DNA of 64,000 bases from Streptomyces griseus (GTDB lineage Bacteria > Actinomycetota > Actinomycetes > Nanopelagicales > Nanopelagicaceae): assembly GCA_945865365.1 (NCBI GenBank), contig CAMBDL010000006.1:2994-66993 (forward strand). The letters are read 5' to 3'. A program made the translations under genes and the position numbers. Positions 4,054 to 61,992 of the stretch are shown piece after piece. Every line of letters starts with the position of its first letter. Position 1 is the stretch's first letter. Under the pieces are notes generated by a model. It made no database searches, had not been told where the DNA came from, and saw nothing but the letters and a program-made list of their open reading frames with translations.

Positions 4054-5094
4054 GTGAGTACAACGAAAGTCTTATCCGAAAATGAGCGCGCTGAAATACT
4101 TCGCCCCCCGGGACTTCGCTCAGCAGGACTGCCAGTATTCATTGTTTCATCGGTGATTCTTGTTCTTCTTTTGGCAGTACCTGTTTTAACTGATATTCGA
4201 TTTTATTATTTGCAGGTAACAATTTTAATATTTTTCTACGCCACTCTTGGCACTGCTTGGGGAATTGTCGGCGGCTACTGCGGGCAGCACTCTATAGGCC
4301 AGGCAGCCTTTGTTGGTATTGGGGCATATACATCGACTCTGCTGTACATGAAAAAAGATATCTCGCCATGGATCGGATTACTTGCAGGAATGCTATTGGC
4401 CGCACTCATAGCCTTAATAATTGGATTTCCTCTCTTTAAGTATGGTTTAAGAGGTGACTACTTTGCTTTAGGCACTGTGGCACTAGGGCTGATTATTTAC
4501 GAATTAACTAATAGTTTTGCAACACTTACGGGTGGGTCTCAAGGTATTCCGCTGAAGTATGAAGATAACCCCTGGAACTTCCAATTCCCAGATCGTAAAT
4601 ATTATTATTATATTGCTTTTATTCTTTGGTTAGCGACAGTCGTAATCTCATATCGTCTTCGCAGATCTCGCCGTGGCTTTGAAATGTTGGCGGTACGAGA
4701 TGACGAAATCGCGGCAGCCCGAGGTGGAATTAGCATCATGCGAGCTAAACTCACGGCTTTCATCATCGGAGCTGTTATCTCAGCAGCAGCAGGTACTTTT
4801 TTCGCACAGTTCCTTTTGTTCATCGACCCTGGAACCGTAATGAGTTTAGAAATCTCCGTTCAAGTAATTTTAGTAGCCGTATTGGGCGGTATGAATAGTT
4901 ACCTTGGCGGAACTGTAGGAGCGATAATTTTGATACCCGTTTCTCAATTCTTATCATCAAAGTTCACTCAATCTCCTGGCGCTGATGTGGCCGTATATGG
5001 AGTTATTTTGATTGTGCTTGTTATCTTTATGCCAAATGGAATCCTTGGACTACTCCGTAAATCACCTCGATGGCGCAAGGTTATTGGGTGGTAG
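4054..5094 (+). CDS. LivM-like ABC permease
   Basis: GYCGQHSIGQAAFVGIGAY and LRGDYFALGT motifs; start GTG 4054 (alternative TTG 4045). Confidence 0.92.
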   Translation: MSTTKVLSENERAEILRPPGLRSAGLPVFIVSSVILVLLLAVPVLTDIRFYYLQVTILIFFYATLGTAWGIVGGYCGQHSIGQAAFVGIGAYTSTLLYMKKDISPWIGLLAGMLLAALIALIIGFPLFKYGLRGDYFALGTVALGLIIYELTNSFATLTGGSQGIPLKYEDNPWNFQFPDRKYYYYIAFILWLATVVISYRLRRSRRGFEMLAVRDDEIAAARGGISIMRAKLTAFIIGAVISAAAGTFFAQFLLFIDPGTVMSLEISVQVILVAVLGGMNSYLGGTVGAIILIPVSQFLSSKFTQSPGADVAVYGVILIVLVIFMPNGILGLLRKSPRWRKVIGW

Positions 5095-57350: not shown

Positions 57351-59012
57351 ATGAAGCTGCGGGTAGCGCTAGCCCAGATCAACCCCACTGTGGGAGATCT
57401 TGCGGGCAATAGGGCATTAATCGCAGATTCGATCCACACAGCAGAAACAGCGGGCGCGCATGTGATTGTGTTCCCAGAGATGATCGTGACTGGTTATCCC
57501 GTTGAAGACTTAGCACTGCGACCATCATTTCAAGCCGCCAGCAAAGCCTCACTTGCAACCATCGCAGCTAGCGTTTCTGGTGATCTAGTAGCTGTTATTG
57601 GTTATCTCGACACCTCTGCCGATGGTGGCCCGCACAATGCTGTGGCGATTATTTCTGGTGGAAAAGTTGTAGCTACATATGTCAAGCGACATCTGCCGAA
57701 CTATGGTGTCTTTGATGAGTTTCGAAACTTTACTGCCGGCACCGAAAGTTTGGTAGTGCGTATACATGGCGTTGATGTAGCAGTTGCGATTTGTGAAGAT
57801 ATTTGGCACTCATTAGCCGAGATTACAGAACGCACGCCTGGCTTAGTTGTAGTCCCTAATGGTTCGCCTTTTGAGCGCAATAAGGATGATGTGCGCTTGG
57901 CGCTTGTACAAAAGCGCGCTCGCGAAGTCAGCGCGCCCATGGCCTATGTCAACATGACAGGTGGCGCAGATGATCTGGTTTTTGATGGCGACACAATTGT
58001 TGTTGATGGAGATGGTGAATTATTAGCCAGAGCGCCACAATTTAGTGATGATGTAATAGTTGTAGATATTGAGTGTAAGCAGGCGAGTTCAATTCCCGAC
58101 GTTGTGATTTCCAATGATCCAGCTGTAATTTCATTTGAGATTACGCCCGCAATCGCTAATCGCTTAAGCGATGAAGCTGAAATTTGGCAAGCCCTTGTAG
58201 TAGGCCTTCGCGACTATATTCATAAAAATGGATTTACCTCTGTCGTGCTGGGCTTATCGGGAGGAATCGATTCAGCGCTTGTAGCCGCGATTGCTATCGA
58301 TGCCCTAGGTGCAGAGAATGTAGTGGGCGTTGCAATGCCAAGTAAGTATTCATCCGATCACTCTCTTGCCGATGCACAAGCCTTGGCCGATGCAACTGGC
58401 ATTGGATTTCGCATCGTTCCCATAGCCCCCATGGTCAGCGCTTTCATGGGGAGTATTGATGTAAGGGGAGTTGCTGAAGAAAATCTACAAGCCCGGGTGC
58501 GCGGCACCACGTTAATGGGGATTTCAAATCAAGAGGGACACATTGTTTTATCCACAGGAAATAAGAGCGAACTAGCAGTCGGTTACTCAACTTTATATGG
58601 CGATGCCGTTGGTGGCTTTGCACCGATTAAGGATATTTATAAGACCGATGTCTGGGCCCTTGCTAAGTGGAGAAATGCTCAGGCCGCTTCGCGAGGAGAA
58701 GTAGCACCGATTCCAGAGAGTTCAATTAGCAAAGAGCCCAGCGCAGAACTTCGTCCAGATCAAAAGGACTCAGACTCTCTTCCTGATTACATTCTTCTAG
58801 ATCAGATTCTGAGCCTTTATGTCGATGAAGATCATGGCTTTGAGGCGTTAATAGAGGATGGTTTTGACTCTGCACTCATAAAACGTGTGATCTCGCTGGT
58901 AGATAAAGCTGAATACAAACGTCGTCAATATCCACCGGGCACAAAGGTATCAAGGCGCGCATTTGGAAAAGATCGCCGCCTGCCCATGACGTCACGGTGG
59001 GCGCAGTCTTAA
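57351..59012 (+). CDS. nadE: Glutamine-dependent NAD+ synthetase
   Basis: Nitrilase domain (FPEM..TGYP, ICEDIW) plus GLSGGIDS, TGNKSE and PSAEL. Confidence 0.96.
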   Translation: MKLRVALAQINPTVGDLAGNRALIADSIHTAETAGAHVIVFPEMIVTGYPVEDLALRPSFQAASKASLATIAASVSGDLVAVIGYLDTSADGGPHNAVAIISGGKVVATYVKRHLPNYGVFDEFRNFTAGTESLVVRIHGVDVAVAICEDIWHSLAEITERTPGLVVVPNGSPFERNKDDVRLALVQKRAREVSAPMAYVNMTGGADDLVFDGDTIVVDGDGELLARAPQFSDDVIVVDIECKQASSIPDVVISNDPAVISFEITPAIANRLSDEAEIWQALVVGLRDYIHKNGFTSVVLGLSGGIDSALVAAIAIDALGAENVVGVAMPSKYSSDHSLADAQALADATGIGFRIVPIAPMVSAFMGSIDVRGVAEENLQARVRGTTLMGISNQEGHIVLSTGNKSELAVGYSTLYGDAVGGFAPIKDIYKTDVWALAKWRNAQAASRGEVAPIPESSISKEPSAELRPDQKDSDSLPDYILLDQILSLYVDEDHGFEALIEDGFDSALIKRVISLVDKAEYKRRQYPPGTKVSRRAFGKDRRLPMTSRWAQS

Positions 59013-59067
59013 TTCTGCAAATGATTTGCAACTCGCGTAATTCGCAGCAATAAGTAAACTTGCCCTT

Positions 59068-59145
59068 GTGCAATCGATTATCACGTGGTTTTTTACACGC
59101 AACCGGATAGTTGATTTCTGCTTATCTACATCCTGCAGCTGCTGA
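59068..59145 (+). CDS. Putative leaderless Cys-rich leader peptide MQSIITWFFTRNRIVDFCLSTSCSC
   Basis: -10 TAAACT 59055-59060, 7 nt, then GTG; three TGC codons in the last eight; lies directly upstream of cysK. Confidence 0.72.
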   Translation: MQSIITWFFTRNRIVDFCLSTSCSC

Positions 59146-59202
59146 TTCTTTTTCACTCAGCCCACGTCCTGCATCATTACATCTATTTTCTAAGGAAGAA
59201 TT

Positions 59203-60129
59203 ATGACAATCTATAATAAAATTACCGAGGCATTTGGAAATACCCCGCTTGTCCGAATTAATACAATCACCGATGGCGCACAAGGCAATGTCTATGCCAA
59301 GTTAGAGTTTTATAATCCCACGTCATCGGTTAAAGATCGCCTGGCAATAGCAATGATTGATGCCGCTGAGGCAAGTGGCGCACTCAAACCTGGCGGAACA
59401 ATTGTTGAGGCGACATCGGGCAATACCGGCATAGCTGTAGCGATGGTTGCCGCTGCACGTGGGTATAAATCGATCTTCACAATGCCCGAGTCGGTATCAA
59501 AAGAGCGCCGCAAACTTATTCGTGCCTTTGGTGCCGAGTTAATTTTAACCCCTGGCGCAGAAGGCATGAAGGGCGCAGTGAGCGCAGCAGAGAAGCTGGG
59601 TGAGTCAGGTGCCGTTCTAGTTCGCCAATTTGAAAATGAAGCCGGTCCAGCCATTCATTATGCAACAACTGGCCCTGAGATTTGGCGTGACCTAGATGGC
59701 AAGGTCGATGCATTTGTTAGCGGCATCGGTACGGGTGGAACGATCACAGGTACTGGGCGCTTCTTAAAAGAGAAGAACCCAGCAATTAAAGTTTTTGGAG
59801 TTGAACCTGCTGCTTCGCCGATTCTCAATGGTGGAGCGCCAGGTCCACATCCACTGCAAGGAATTGGTCCAAACTTTATTCCAACGATTTTAGATCGCAC
59901 GGTTTATGACGAGATCTTGGATGCCACGGCCGATGATGCAATGAAGTACGCACGCCGTGCCGCAGCTGAAGAAGGTATCTTGGCCGGTATTTCTTCAGGT
60001 GCAACGTTGTGGGCGGCAATTGAAGTTGCTAAGCGCCCAGAGTTTGCCGGCAAGAATATAGCTGTCATTCTTGCATCAGCTGGCGAGCGTTACTTATCAA
60101 CTATCTTGTATCAAGATCTAGCTGATTAA
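59203..60129 (+). CDS. cysK: Cysteine synthase A
   Basis: SVKDR PLP lysine, [13 protein letters not shown]. Confidence 0.96.
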
Positions 60130-60130
60130 C

Positions 60131-60643
60131 ATGTTAATTATTAGCCGCATTAAAGAGGATCTCGATAATGCGTTGGCTCATGATCCAGCCGCACGCAATC
60201 GCTTAGAGGTTGTCTTGGCATATCCAGGCGTGCATGCAGTGTGGGGATATCGTATTTCACATTTCTTATGGAATAGAAAATTGAAGTTACTCGCCCGCAT
60301 GTATGCCAATTCGGTTCGTACTGCAACTGGGGTAGAGATACATCCCGCTGCCACAATTGGTCGTCGATTTTTTATCGATCATGGAATGGGCGTAGTCATT
60401 GGATCTACATCAATTATCGGTAACGACGTCATGATCTATCACGATGTCACATTGGGCGCCAGAACGTATATGCAGGGTAAGCGTCATCCAACGATTGAAA
60501 ACAATGTAGTTATTGGTGCTGGTGCACGAATCATTGGCGATATAACTATTGGCCATGGCGCACGAATCAGCTCCAATGTAGTTATTACTAAAGATATTCC
60601 GGCTCAAAGTACACTTGAAAGCAGTGAATTCTTCGTTATTTAG
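60131..60643 (+). CDS. cysE: Serine O-acetyltransferase
   Basis: [26 protein letters not shown]. Confidence 0.95.
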
Positions 60644-60687
60644 AGGATTTAACACGGCCGTAACCTGGCTTTGTAAGAATACTGCAC

Positions 60688-61992
60688 ATGTCACCAGAGA
60701 TAAGCAAGCAGCAAGAGTTCGTTCTTCGCACTATTGAAGAGCGCAATATCCGTTTTATTCGTTTGTGGTTCACCGATGTTTTAGGTTTTTTAAAATCTGT
60801 AGCGATTGCACCTGCTGAGTTAGAAAATGCATTTGAAGAGGGAATCGGTTTTGACGGTTCGGCAATTGAAGGTTTTGCTCGCGTAACTGAATCAGACATG
60901 TTGGCAAAGCCAGATCCTGCAACGTTTTCAATTCTGCCGTGGCGAACTGAAGCACCAGGTGCTGCGCGTATGTTTTGTGACATCACCATGCCAGATGGCA
61001 GTGCCTCCCCTGCCGATCCGCGAAATGTATTGCGCCGAACATTAGATAAAGCGGCCAGCATGGGTTACACCTGTTACACACACCCCGAGATTGAGTTTTT
61101 CCTATTTAAAGAAAAGCCAGAAACCGGTGTTGCACCTGTTCCCGTAGACCAGGGTGGCTATTTCGATCACACGCCAGCGGTCGTTGGACATGATTTTCGT
61201 CGTCAAGCAATTACGTTGTTAGAGGCTATGGGGATCTCTGTGGAGTTTTCACATCACGAAGGTGGCCCAGGTCAGCAGGAGATTGACTTGCGCGATGCCG
61301 ATGCGCTAACCACGGCTGATAACATCATGACGTTTCGCCATGTCATTAAAGAGGTTGCAATGGATCAAGGCTTCCATGCATCGTTTATGCCAAAACCTTT
61401 TACCAATCATCCAGGTAGCGGAATGCATACCCACGTCTCACTGTTTAAAGGTGAAGAAAATGCTTTCTATGATGCCAATGCCCAGTACAACTTATCTAAC
61501 GTGGGCCGTTCATTTATTGCCGGCATTCTCAAGCATGCACCAGAAATCACTGCAATCACTAATCAATGGGTGAACTCTTATAAGCGCTTACATGGCGGGG
61601 GAGAAGCACCAGCAGTTATTAACTGGGGACCAAGTAATCGCGGGGCGCTTGTACGTTTGCCTATGTATAAGCCGGGCAAAGAAAACTCAACTCGCATTGA
61701 ATTTAGATCTCCCGATACTGCATGTAATCCATATTTAGCCTATGCCGTTATGTTAGCTGCGGGCTTAAAGGGTGTTGAAGATAGCTATGTATTAAGTGAT
61801 TCCAGTGAGTTAATTTCACTGCCAACCGACCTCAATGAGGCAATCGCTGAGATGGAAAAAAGCGCACTTGTTCGCGACACTTTGGGCGAACATGTCTTCG
61901 AATATGTTTTACGCAATAAGCGCGCTGAATGGCTGGATTACAGCCGTCAAGTGAGTGCTTACGAACTCGACCGATATTTGCCAGTTCTTTAA
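60688..61992 (+). CDS. glnA2: Glutamine synthetase family protein, GlnA2 type
   Basis: FDGSAIEG, HHEGGPGQQEI, GSGMHTH, GGGEAP, RIEFRSPD; near nadE/panB as for actinobacterial glnA2. Confidence 0.88.
   Translation: MSPEISKQQEFVLRTIEERNIRFIRLWFTDVLGFLKSVAIAPAELENAFEEGIGFDGSAIEGFARVTESDMLAKPDPATFSILPWRTEAPGAARMFCDITMPDGSASPADPRNVLRRTLDKAASMGYTCYTHPEIEFFLFKEKPETGVAPVPVDQGGYFDHTPAVVGHDFRRQAITLLEAMGISVEFSHHEGGPGQQEIDLRDADALTTADNIMTFRHVIKEVAMDQGFHASFMPKPFTNHPGSGMHTHVSLFKGEENAFYDANAQYNLSNVGRSFIAGILKHAPEITAITNQWVNSYKRLHGGGEAPAVINWGPSNRGALVRLPMYKPGKENSTRIEFRSPDTACNPYLAYAVMLAAGLKGVEDSYVLSDSSELISLPTDLNEAIAEMEKSALVRDTLGEHVFEYVLRNKRAEWLDYSRQVSAYELDRYLPVL

Follow-up and report, generated by a model that had tools for sequence, protein, structure and literature searches.

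A leaderless cysteine-containing leader peptide upstream of cysK-cysE in Nanopelagicales, a probable ribosome-mediated cysteine sensor

Freshwater actinobacteria of the acI group have no sulfate assimilation and rely on reduced sulfur (PMC5301498), so it would be sensible for their cysK-cysE genes to be controlled by the supply of cysteine, and the question is how such control might be exerted. The locus that raises this question lies in a 64,000-nt stretch of contig CAMBDL010000006.1 (assembly GCA_945865365.1, positions 2,994–66,993; hereafter the window), in which cysK and cysE are preceded by a short open reading frame (sORF) of 25 codons. An initial annotation, made from the DNA sequence, had described this sORF as an unannotated leaderless Cys-rich leader peptide that brings about cysteine attenuation by means of the ribosome. 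From the analysis presented here we consider it probable that the leader peptide of the leaderless cysK-cysE mRNA is indeed a ribosome-mediated cysteine sensor. The concept is a known one; what deserves attention is the lineage in which it is found and a minimal design with a single Cys codon. The coordinates of the features discussed below are collected in Table 1.

The −10 hexamer, the interval that follows it, the GTG start codon at 59068 and the 25-codon open reading frame (ORF) were all found exactly where the initial annotation had placed them. The stop codon occupies 59143–59145, the three Cys codons lie at 59119–59121, 59134–59136 and 59140–59142, and a spacer of 57 nt separates the sORF from cysK. 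An ORF of this length is unremarkable by itself, there being 101 ORFs of at least 20 residues within 6 kb. It contains three Cys in 24 codons, compared with 0.58% Cys in the genes of the window (P = 3.6e-4). Among cysK loci drawn from 185,579 species genomes, a homologous sORF is present 52–107 nt upstream of cysK in all 46 loci of Nanopelagicales type (CysK identity 65–94%). A strict DNA pattern for W-x-F-T-R-x-R-[IV]-V-D-F retrieved a further set of 120 metagenome contigs, and in each of the 116 that reach far enough the next gene is cysK, although a pattern of this strictness would miss divergent leaders on other operons. Conservation ahead of cysK in relatives, which had been named as one check on the proposal, thus holds in both samples. 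Over 37 unique sORFs of 25 codons, the entropy at the three codon positions is 0.23, 0.13 and 0.93, and synonymous and non-synonymous differences stand at 4853:2035 in frame as against 469:6554 and 690:6281 in the other two frames. By this third-position variability and in-frame synonymous excess, the ORF is a real gene that is translated, and its peptide sequence is under purifying selection. The gene is systematically uncalled, since none of six variants of the peptide is present among 15 billion predicted proteins, which is consistent with its having been called unannotated. A family hidden Markov model run against all six-frame ORFs of the window found no second copy of the leader, the next matches (E of at least 0.3) being inside a permease gene, and the 64 kb therefore offer no sign of a multi-operon 'ribulon'.

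Table 1. Positions of the cysK-cysE leader, its elements and the neighboring features in the window.
Feature	Position	Strand	Remarks
Palindrome TGCAAAT-G-ATTTGCA	59016..59030	+	Perfect 7-1-7; candidate operator; consensus TGCRAA-N3-TTYGCA
−10 hexamer TAAACT	59055..59060	+	7 nt (59061–59067) to GTG; no Shine-Dalgarno sequence between
Leader ORF, leaderless, 25 codons, MQSIITWFFTRNRIVDFCLSTSCSC followed by stop	59068..59145	+	Conserved core W-[FLY]-F-T-R-x-R-[IV]-V-D-[FL]; coding signature
Long stem P1	59073..59115	+	Closes mRNA 5′ end; 59073–59082 (codons 2–5) pairs with 59106–59115 (codons 13–16); in the minimum free energy fold of the window
Apical hairpin in sORF	59086..59105	+	In the window UGGUU (59086–59090) pairs with AACCG (59101–59105), followed by U-rich GUUGAUUU
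Cys18 codon (Asp+2)	59119..59121	+	Inside pyrimidine tract UUCUGCUU (59116–59123), able to pair with the cysK Shine-Dalgarno sequence
Terminal sensing codons UGC-AGC-UGC (Cys23-Ser24-Cys25), putative	59134..59142	+	Also palindrome GCAGCUGC, 5′ arm of the last-Cys/stop stem
Spacer, C-rich, G-poor, U-rich	59146..59188	+	Carries 3′ arms of the last-Cys/stop stem and UUCUUUUUC
cysK Shine-Dalgarno region AAGGAAGAA	59192..59200	+	AGGGAGAA in most relatives
cysK, cysteine synthase A (O-acetylserine sulfhydrylase)	59203..60129	+	First regulated gene (predicted); TIGR01139, 434.7 bits (cut-off 350.95)
cysE, serine O-acetyltransferase	60131..60643	+	TIGR01172, 224.4 bits (cut-off 210.65)

The geometry of the leader promoter is leaderless. 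Of 118 unique upstream sequences, 116 have TANNNT ahead of the start codon, at a distance of 6 nt in 91 and of 7 nt in 25, with TAGAAT, TAAACT and TAAAAT as the most frequent hexamers, and no Shine-Dalgarno (SD)-like tetramer was found at positions −16 to −4 in any of the 118. The leader transcript is read as leaderless because there is no SD sequence between the −10 hexamer and the GTG. A promoter/terminator consensus scan returned no site on the plus strand, and a sigma-70 scan for two hexamers misses the TAAACT promoter because it lacks a −35 element. Metatranscriptome RNA corresponding to the window's own sequence amounted to one 151-nt contig within cysK, and RNA was mapped instead to a commoner relative, L002 (sORF at 2861–2938), using contigs from four lake and estuary metatranscriptomes that belong to four studies. 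Depth is 0–8 over the promoter of L002, climbs from position 2871 and stands at about 300, 34, 1300 and 1900 at 2892–2919 in the four metatranscriptomes, and beyond the sORF the contigs carry on into the spacers, and into cysK, of several strains. On the strength of this depth profile and of the contigs that run into cysK, the leader is abundantly transcribed in nature and co-transcribed with cysK, with its 5′ boundary within about 10–25 nt of the start codon. The earlier assertion of a leaderless start is therefore upheld by the hexamer 6–7 nt upstream, by the lack of an SD sequence and by RNA in situ that begins near the start codon.

The anatomy of the peptide was surveyed over 51 unique sequences, in which positions are counted from the Asp of the conserved core. 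Cys occupies Asp+9 in 49 of them, Asp+7 in 37 and Asp+2 in 38; 47 peptides end in Cys, and the end lies 9 residues from the Asp in 49 peptides and 10 residues from it in the other two. Consecutive Cys residues are confined to a few relatives, with Asp+8 being Cys in 6 of 51. Eight peptides, all from Nanopelagicus-like lineages, contain a single Cys in the terminal position (ending in VVDFGRISSTSC followed by the stop codon). The window peptide ends in Cys-Ser-Cys with the third Cys five residues before, and it contains no consecutive Cys codons. This is no polycysteine tract but a design of fixed geometry in which the putative sensing codon abuts the stop codon. In two metagenome sequences (L090 and L189), on contigs that end before cysK, the peptides close with VDFCISASCTA and VDFCIFASCTS, so that the terminal Cys is lost and those at Asp+2 and Asp+7 are kept. 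Cys is encoded by TGC in 108 of 110 cases, compared with a TGC:TGT ratio of 57:60 in the genes of the window; the Ser24 codon is always AGY; and Phe17 is TTC in 32 of 37 sORFs, whereas the window genes favor TTT (TTT:TTC 594:272). Codon usage at these three places fits a constraint at the nucleotide level.

Known families of leader peptides were then compared with this design. A Pfam search with six peptide variants gave no matches, and the window peptide itself matches no NCBIfam leader model (searched at E up to 10 for NF042933). Matches do come from more divergent Nanopelagicales peptides, all beneath the respective cut-offs: the best relative, a Nanopelagicus-like one, scores 22.9 bits (E = 4.9e-5, cut-off 45) with NF042933, the Ms5788A family; the best score is 22.2 bits (E = 7.9e-5, cut-off 27) with NF042934, the cis_reg_atten putative leader peptide domain; and it is 15.2 bits (E = 0.012, cut-off 45) with NF042936, the Ms4527A family. 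In the latter two cases the match spans the FTRR-V-D-L...C region of the relatives' peptides. When a profile of 17 Nanopelagicales peptides was aligned by hhalign with Ms5788A from Mycobacterium smegmatis (VSTRLELSLTKRRAVDLCRVAGCCCCCCCC; Table S1 of 10.1101/834739), a probability of 93% and an E-value of 3.2e-7 were obtained over 20 columns, with TWFFTRNRIVDFCLSTSCSC paired with ELSLTKRRAVDLCRVAGCCC. The R..VD[LF]...C pattern, which the initial annotation had likened to putative leader peptides of actinobacteria, proves in the light of these matches to be real.

The function of Ms5788A has been established by start-codon, frameshift, Cys-to-Ser and compensatory mutants, from which it emerged that the stalling of ribosomes in the Cys tract unmasks the SD sequence of the next gene (10.1101/834739). 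Both it and the Nanopelagicales leader are leaderless sORFs at the 5′ end of an operon of sulfur or cysteine metabolism, share the core [TK]-R-R-x-V-D-[LF]-C-R with Cys toward the C-terminus, and include a part complementary to the SD sequence of the following gene, a pairing that in Nanopelagicales is a predicted one. They differ in that Ms5788A has eight consecutive Cys codons and the tract itself is the anti-SD sequence, whereas in Nanopelagicales there are one to three dispersed Cys codons and the candidate anti-SD sequence consists of the Phe-Cys-Leu codons or of a tract past the stop codon. The genes downstream are Ms5788-cysA2 in the one case and cysK-cysE in the other, and the Nanopelagicales locus, unlike that of Ms5788A, lies in an AT-rich genome and has a G-poor spacer and a conserved palindrome upstream. 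In Mycobacterium tuberculosis the leaderless sORF (LL-sORF) Rv2334A, with C-terminal Cys, precedes cysK1-cysE (10.1101/834739); it is among the annotated Cys-response attenuators, and ribosomes stall there upon cleavage of tRNA-Cys (2026 study, PMC13096801). Its position is identical to that of the Nanopelagicales leader, each being a leaderless Cys-ending sORF immediately before cysK-cysE, and the two are likened by position, not by sequence; the polycysteine tract described for Rv2334A, C-terminal and with four clustered Cys, is missing from the Nanopelagicales leader. Polycysteine leaderless sORFs were defined by a leaderless start, two or more consecutive Cys codons and a place upstream of, and co-transcription with, cysteine-related genes (10.1101/834739). 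They are further marked by downstream expression that goes up under cysteine limitation and requires translation of the Cys codons and, in Ms5788A only, by a pairing of the sORF RNA with the SD sequence of the gene behind it. The leader described here has the leaderless start and the co-transcription with cysteine genes and lacks the consecutive Cys codons. The likeness to mycobacterial polycysteine leaders that had been drawn at the outset is accordingly borne out by the kinship with Ms5788A and by the place of Rv2334A before cysK1-cysE, and does not extend to polycysteine in the sense of the mycobacterial paper. Its wider form, that a leaderless Cys-rich leader of actinobacterial kind has been kept in a streamlined genome, is supported by the order-wide occurrence of the sORF upstream of cysK and by the 94% identity of the window's CysK to Ca. 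Planktophila proteins. No paper was found in the literature searched that mentions Nanopelagicales together with leaderless. By these alignments the leader is related, if distantly, to the Cys-rich leaderless leader peptides of mycobacteria, and it falls beneath the existing family models.

In the mechanism that we propose, transcription would begin at or within a few nucleotides of the GTG, and translation of the sORF by a 70S ribosome would start right at the 5′ end of the mRNA. With Cys-tRNA(Cys) in ample supply, this ribosome would pass Cys18, Cys23 and Cys25, terminate and depart, and the vacated leader would hold expression of cysK-cysE low. When Cys-tRNA(Cys) is scarce, the ribosome would wait at the terminal Cys codons, at Asp+9 and adjoining the stop codon, where it would shield a stretch of RNA that runs from roughly codon 18 to some 10 nt beyond the stop. 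Its footprint would include the pyrimidine tracts that can pair with the SD sequence, namely UUCUGCYU at codons 17–19 and, in the window, UUCUUUUUC after the stop codon, as well as the start of the C-rich, G-poor spacer, and with these tracts covered the expression of cysK-cysE would go up. The sensor part of this scheme, a ribosome awaiting Cys-tRNA at the terminal Cys codons, is well supported by homology, context and geometry. From it we infer a response to cysteine, and for the output step we favor unmasking of the SD sequence as in Ms5788A, probably in addition to protection from premature termination of the Rho type.

Unmasking of the SD sequence draws on the predicted structure of the leader RNA. 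Only two elements are kept by an unguided RNAalifold prediction on 38 full leaders, one being an apical hairpin inside the sORF and the other a helix between sORF nucleotides 49–56 (UUCUGCCU, the codons of Phe17-Cys18-Leu19) and the cysK SD sequence AGGGAGAA, in which 96.5% of cells pair. In 104 of 128 leaders, where 51.7 would be expected, the best complement of the SD sequence falls between −30 and +18 nt relative to the last Cys codon; it is located either at codons 17–19 or, in independent lineages that include the window's, just past the stop codon. For the window this best complement is UUCUUUUUC, which starts at sORF nucleotide 72 and pairs with −8.5 kcal/mol. In models averaged over the leaders, the energy needed to open the SD sequence drops by about 0.9 kcal/mol with a ribosome at codons 14–24 and not with one at codons 2–11.

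Several observations weigh against a sensor that works by unmasking. The sensor is thin, with one to three non-consecutive Cys codons and a single Cys in 8 of 51 peptides, as compared with the eight consecutive codons of Ms5788A. The SD helix is short and long-range and the energies involved are small, and the variation in the helix is all one-sided or wobble, so that there is no double-sided covariation. The tract at codons 17–19 is absent from the VDFGR and VDFAR lineages. In the window itself the helix at codons 15–20 is weak (−5.9 kcal/mol), and the accessibility of the SD sequence is not improved by a ribosome at the Cys codons (2.4 versus 2.3–3.1 kcal/mol). Finally, the sequences are phylogenetically related, and the counts given here overstate the number of independent events.

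The composition of the spacer bears on a second form of output. The same sensor might act through Rho-dependent transcription attenuation with a geometry like that of tnaC, in which case the spacer, left naked once the ribosome has terminated normally, would be a Rho utilization (rut) site and transcription would stop ahead of cysK or inside it, a ribosome halted at the last Cys codon would keep Rho away, and the hairpin and U-tract inside the sORF would be a polymerase pause that synchronizes the first ribosome with the polymerase. Somewhat unlikely though it is, we regard this as a strong rival of unmasking or a complement to it. Over 116 unique spacers the base fractions are A 0.28, C 0.22, G 0.089 and U 0.41, with C exceeding G in 114, and the G fraction of upstream regions taken as controls in the window is 0.217; the window spacer contains 32.6% C and 7% G. 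The spacer is poor in G in all lineages, also in those that are without the anti-SD sequence at codons 17–19, and the best 78-nt stretch of the leader, with a C/G ratio of 2.88, ranks among the top 0.13% in the 64-kb window. Attenuation by Rho would also agree with a sensing codon that is invariably the last or last but one, with the covarying hairpin and U-rich tract about 10 nt before Cys18, and with the rarity of intrinsic terminator-like sites in the spacer (3 of 128 leaders). The mycobacterial study, moreover, left open for the other Cys sORFs whether transcription or translation is controlled, and invoked polarity for the downstream genes (10.1101/834739). On the other hand, a search limited to the 64-kb window found no rho gene in it, a stalled ribosome shields only about 10 nt of the spacer, and the poverty in G may equally serve to store pyrimidine tracts of anti-SD type or to avoid spurious SD sequences and start codons. 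Contig depth gives no clear excess of leader RNA over cysK RNA, a measure that is unreliable here.

In the tnaC-tnaA operon of Escherichia coli, TnaC senses free tryptophan, blocks release and thereby induces a catabolic operon. As with tnaC, the decisive position of the ribosome in the Nanopelagicales leader would be at the end of the ORF, beside a spacer that potentially loads Rho, and a conserved peptide core stands at a fixed distance from the last codon. The logic differs, tnaC being induced by free tryptophan whereas the Nanopelagicales leader would be induced by starvation via a hungry Cys codon, and a part for Rho in the latter is suggested by composition only.

The hairpin that would act as a pause in such a scheme is formed in most relatives as ACNCG-N4-CGN'GU from the codons of Thr10-Arg11 and Arg13-Val14 (L002, 2888–2910, with 59095–59115 as the matching stretch of the window), and in Ile14 lineages such as that of the window UGGUU/AACCG takes its place. 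In 84 of 91 unique sequences, compared with 52.3 expected, the third base of the Thr10 codon is complementary to that of the Arg13 codon (A-U 48, G-C 19, C-G 13), and this covariation at synonymous sites is real. Hairpin and U-rich tract together pass a simple terminator criterion in 96 of 128 leaders but in only about 8 of the shuffles. As the terminator of an attenuator the hairpin is ruled out, because it lies 5′ of the Cys codons; it may be an RNA polymerase pause or a 5′ structural element, about 10 nt before Cys18. Outside this hairpin the long stem P1 joins codons 2–5 to codons 13–17 in two alternative registers, in which 83–88% of cells pair over 38 leaders as against 24–52% in slid controls, and in Nanopelagicus-like leaders it extends to the start codon. 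The fold of the window leader as a whole is no more stable than that of shuffled sequences (z = −0.98).

A sensor with so few Cys codons might be assisted by the nascent peptide. The core W-[FLY]-F-T-R-x-R-[IV]-V-D-[FL], nine residues before the terminal Cys, would in that case be an arrest module in the exit tunnel that delays the forming of the peptide bond, or release, at the last codon or codons, so that one Cys codon suffices; this would add to the sensor proposed above and not replace it. We rate the suggestion as rather doubtful, and a contribution of the nascent chain as plausible but unproven. Amino acids are kept at codons 9–15 while the third positions drift, the last residue is at Asp+9 in all but two of the 51 peptides, and the eight single-Cys peptides retain Cys at the last codon. 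R-R-x-V-D-[LF]-C-R is found also in Ms5788A, in a genome of very different base composition, and an interaction with the ribosome was raised by the authors of the mycobacterial study as one possibility for the conserved non-Cys residues (10.1101/834739). The core codons, however, also form RNA helices (the ACNCG/CGNGU hairpin, UGGUU/AACCG, and the GAUUUC arm of P1 and of the anti-SD helix), so that the core may owe part of its conservation to dual constraints.

The initial annotation had pointed to a stem that covers the last Cys codons and the stop codon, together with a near-direct repeat that offers alternative pairing. Both exist at the positions given: the stem, at 59134–59173, is UGCAG (59134–59138)-CU-GCUGA (59141–59145)...UCAGC (59157–59161)...CUGCA (59169–59173), and the repeat consists of ACATCCTGCA (59128–59137) and ACGTCCTGCA (59164–59173). 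A trp/his-type attenuator that uses the stem and the ACATCCTGCA/ACGTCCTGCA repeat as terminator and antiterminator is nevertheless highly improbable. In the window the duplex reaches −10.1 kcal/mol versus −4.8 kcal/mol in shuffled spacers (p = 0.024), its inner part is present in the minimum free energy and centroid folds, and the 3′ arm varies from lineage to lineage with complementarity to GCAGCUGC maintained. Over 47 leaders, however, only 34% have the stem at p < 0.05, which gives it moderate support; it is missing from several lineages and is dropped by RNAalifold. The window stem is not followed by a U-run, and the consensus scan detected no intrinsic terminator on the plus strand of the window leader. 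An intrinsic terminator in the spacer was rejected as the output, since terminator-like sites there are confined to 3 of 128 leaders, and the stem and repeat do not survive as a terminator/antiterminator pair. The leader resembles trpL, hisL and ilvB1, the last a transcription attenuator with an upstream ORF in M. tuberculosis (PMC13236596), in being a short ORF with codons for the end product in which a ribosome pause would set downstream expression; those systems employ alternative hairpins and a Rho-independent terminator, whereas the Nanopelagicales spacer is without such a terminator. In five Nanopelagicus-like loci (L041, L104, L115, L144 and L155) a GC hairpin, UGGGC-AUA-GCCCA or GGGC-UUU-GCCC, lies about 20–35 nt past the sORF stop and is followed by UCUGYUUUU, and the spacer of L181 contains a canonical-looking terminator, GGCGCC-CGUU-GGUGCU with UUUUUUU. 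The Nanopelagicus-like sub-lineage may use a weak intrinsic terminator, unlike the lineage of the window. Rfam 15 covariance models, among them those for riboswitches and the T-box, gave no match to either strand of 58500–59700 at E up to 10.

Directly after the nadE stop codon, with its center 45 bp upstream of the sORF start, lies a perfect palindrome that is unique in the 64-kb window at up to one mismatch. It recurs exactly at the same place in 21 loci, distant lineages included, and of about 48 promoters nearly all have it centered between −42 and −46 (also in L001–L049 and L081–L200). The cysK-cysE leader promoter is without a −35 hexamer at the proper distance. The palindrome is probably the site of action of a dimeric transcription factor, perhaps an activator, which would provide a second, transcriptional layer of control; at the Ms5788 locus, by contrast, the authors saw no contribution of transcription initiation. 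Two other roles for the palindrome were ruled out: as a nadE terminator it is too short, being an AT-rich 6-bp stem with a 3-nt loop and no U-run, and as a −35 element its TTGCAA half-site is 23 bp from the −10 hexamer. In the Planktophila genomes L002, L009 and L012 the left half of the palindrome region is tandemly duplicated (GCTAGTTGCAAAC, two to three copies) at about −75 to −50 from the sORF start, which provides extra half-sites.

The presence of this element allows for a case in which the sORF is translated and is not a sensor at all, cysteine control being exerted by a transcription factor at the −45 palindrome, with the peptide acting in trans as a small protein or the sORF serving as a leaderless entry that makes the 5′ end of the mRNA more stable or supplies cysK with ribosomes. 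In conservation the palindrome equals the sORF, and it is unique in the window, selection on the peptide would suit a trans-acting product equally, and P1 folds the 5′ end. We regard this as improbable all the same: it leaves unexplained the fixation of Cys at Asp+9, Asp+7, Asp+2 and the last codon against a background of 0.58%, as well as the alignment with a proven Cys sensor, Ms5788A, and cysK is the only adjacent partner gene (116 of 116 evaluable contigs). The gap of 52–107 nt between sORF and cysK, in addition, rules out simple termination-reinitiation coupling. Elements of several of these proposals could be joined in an ancient actinobacterial arrest module, in which a lone hungry Cys codon or the adjacent stop codon would be the switch, Rho protection of the spacer the output, and the −45 factor layered on top; such a combination is speculative and, in our estimate, unlikely. 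The reading that we prefer remains a ribosome-mediated cysteine sensor in the leader, which the palindrome would supplement.

Around the leader the genes run panB (minus strand), nadE, the sORF, cysK, cysE, a glnA-like gene and leuA, as confirmed with NCBIfam. One nucleotide separates the cysK stop from the cysE start (60129–60131), which puts the two genes in one operon and suggests tight translational coupling. The glnA-like gene begins 44 nt past cysE (60643–60688) and might share the cysK-cysE transcript. The G+C content of the window is about 46%, and since its CysK is 94% identical to proteins of metagenome-assembled or other genomes labeled Ca. Planktophila or Nanopelagicaceae, the source of the window is an acI-type freshwater actinobacterium, Ca. 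Planktophila-like and within Nanopelagicales.

Other actinobacterial cysK loci are organized differently. In Rhodoluna-like loci (L042–L044) and in uncultured Actinomycetota (L050, L053 and L055) there is no Cys sORF upstream of cysK, and cysK is apparently leaderless itself, with a −10-like TAAACT or CAAACT 7 nt before its ATG. Inspection by eye likewise revealed no sORF upstream of cysK in Rhodoluna, Leucobacter, Herbiconiux and MFD bins, and at the Rhodoluna-like and MFD loci cysK itself seemed leaderless. In the sample examined, the arrangement of an sORF followed by a cysK with an SD sequence looks specific to Nanopelagicales.

Nanopelagicales (acI) are among the most abundant freshwater bacteria, with streamlined genomes, few regulators and a need for external reduced sulfur. 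A ribosome-based cysteine sensor, together with a likely operator, on cysK-cysE would place a key step of assimilation under control with hardly any coding sequence spent on it. The leader gene escapes current gene callers and the NCBIfam cut-offs, and the present alignment could seed a model for it. The single-Cys versions behind a strict core would offer a natural series for asking whether the non-sensor residues act in the exit tunnel, a question left by the mycobacterial work. If the sensor is as proposed, Cys-responsive leaderless leaders would extend from mycobacteria to a distant, AT-rich actinobacterial order, and this spread argues that the R-x-V-D-[LF]...C module is old.

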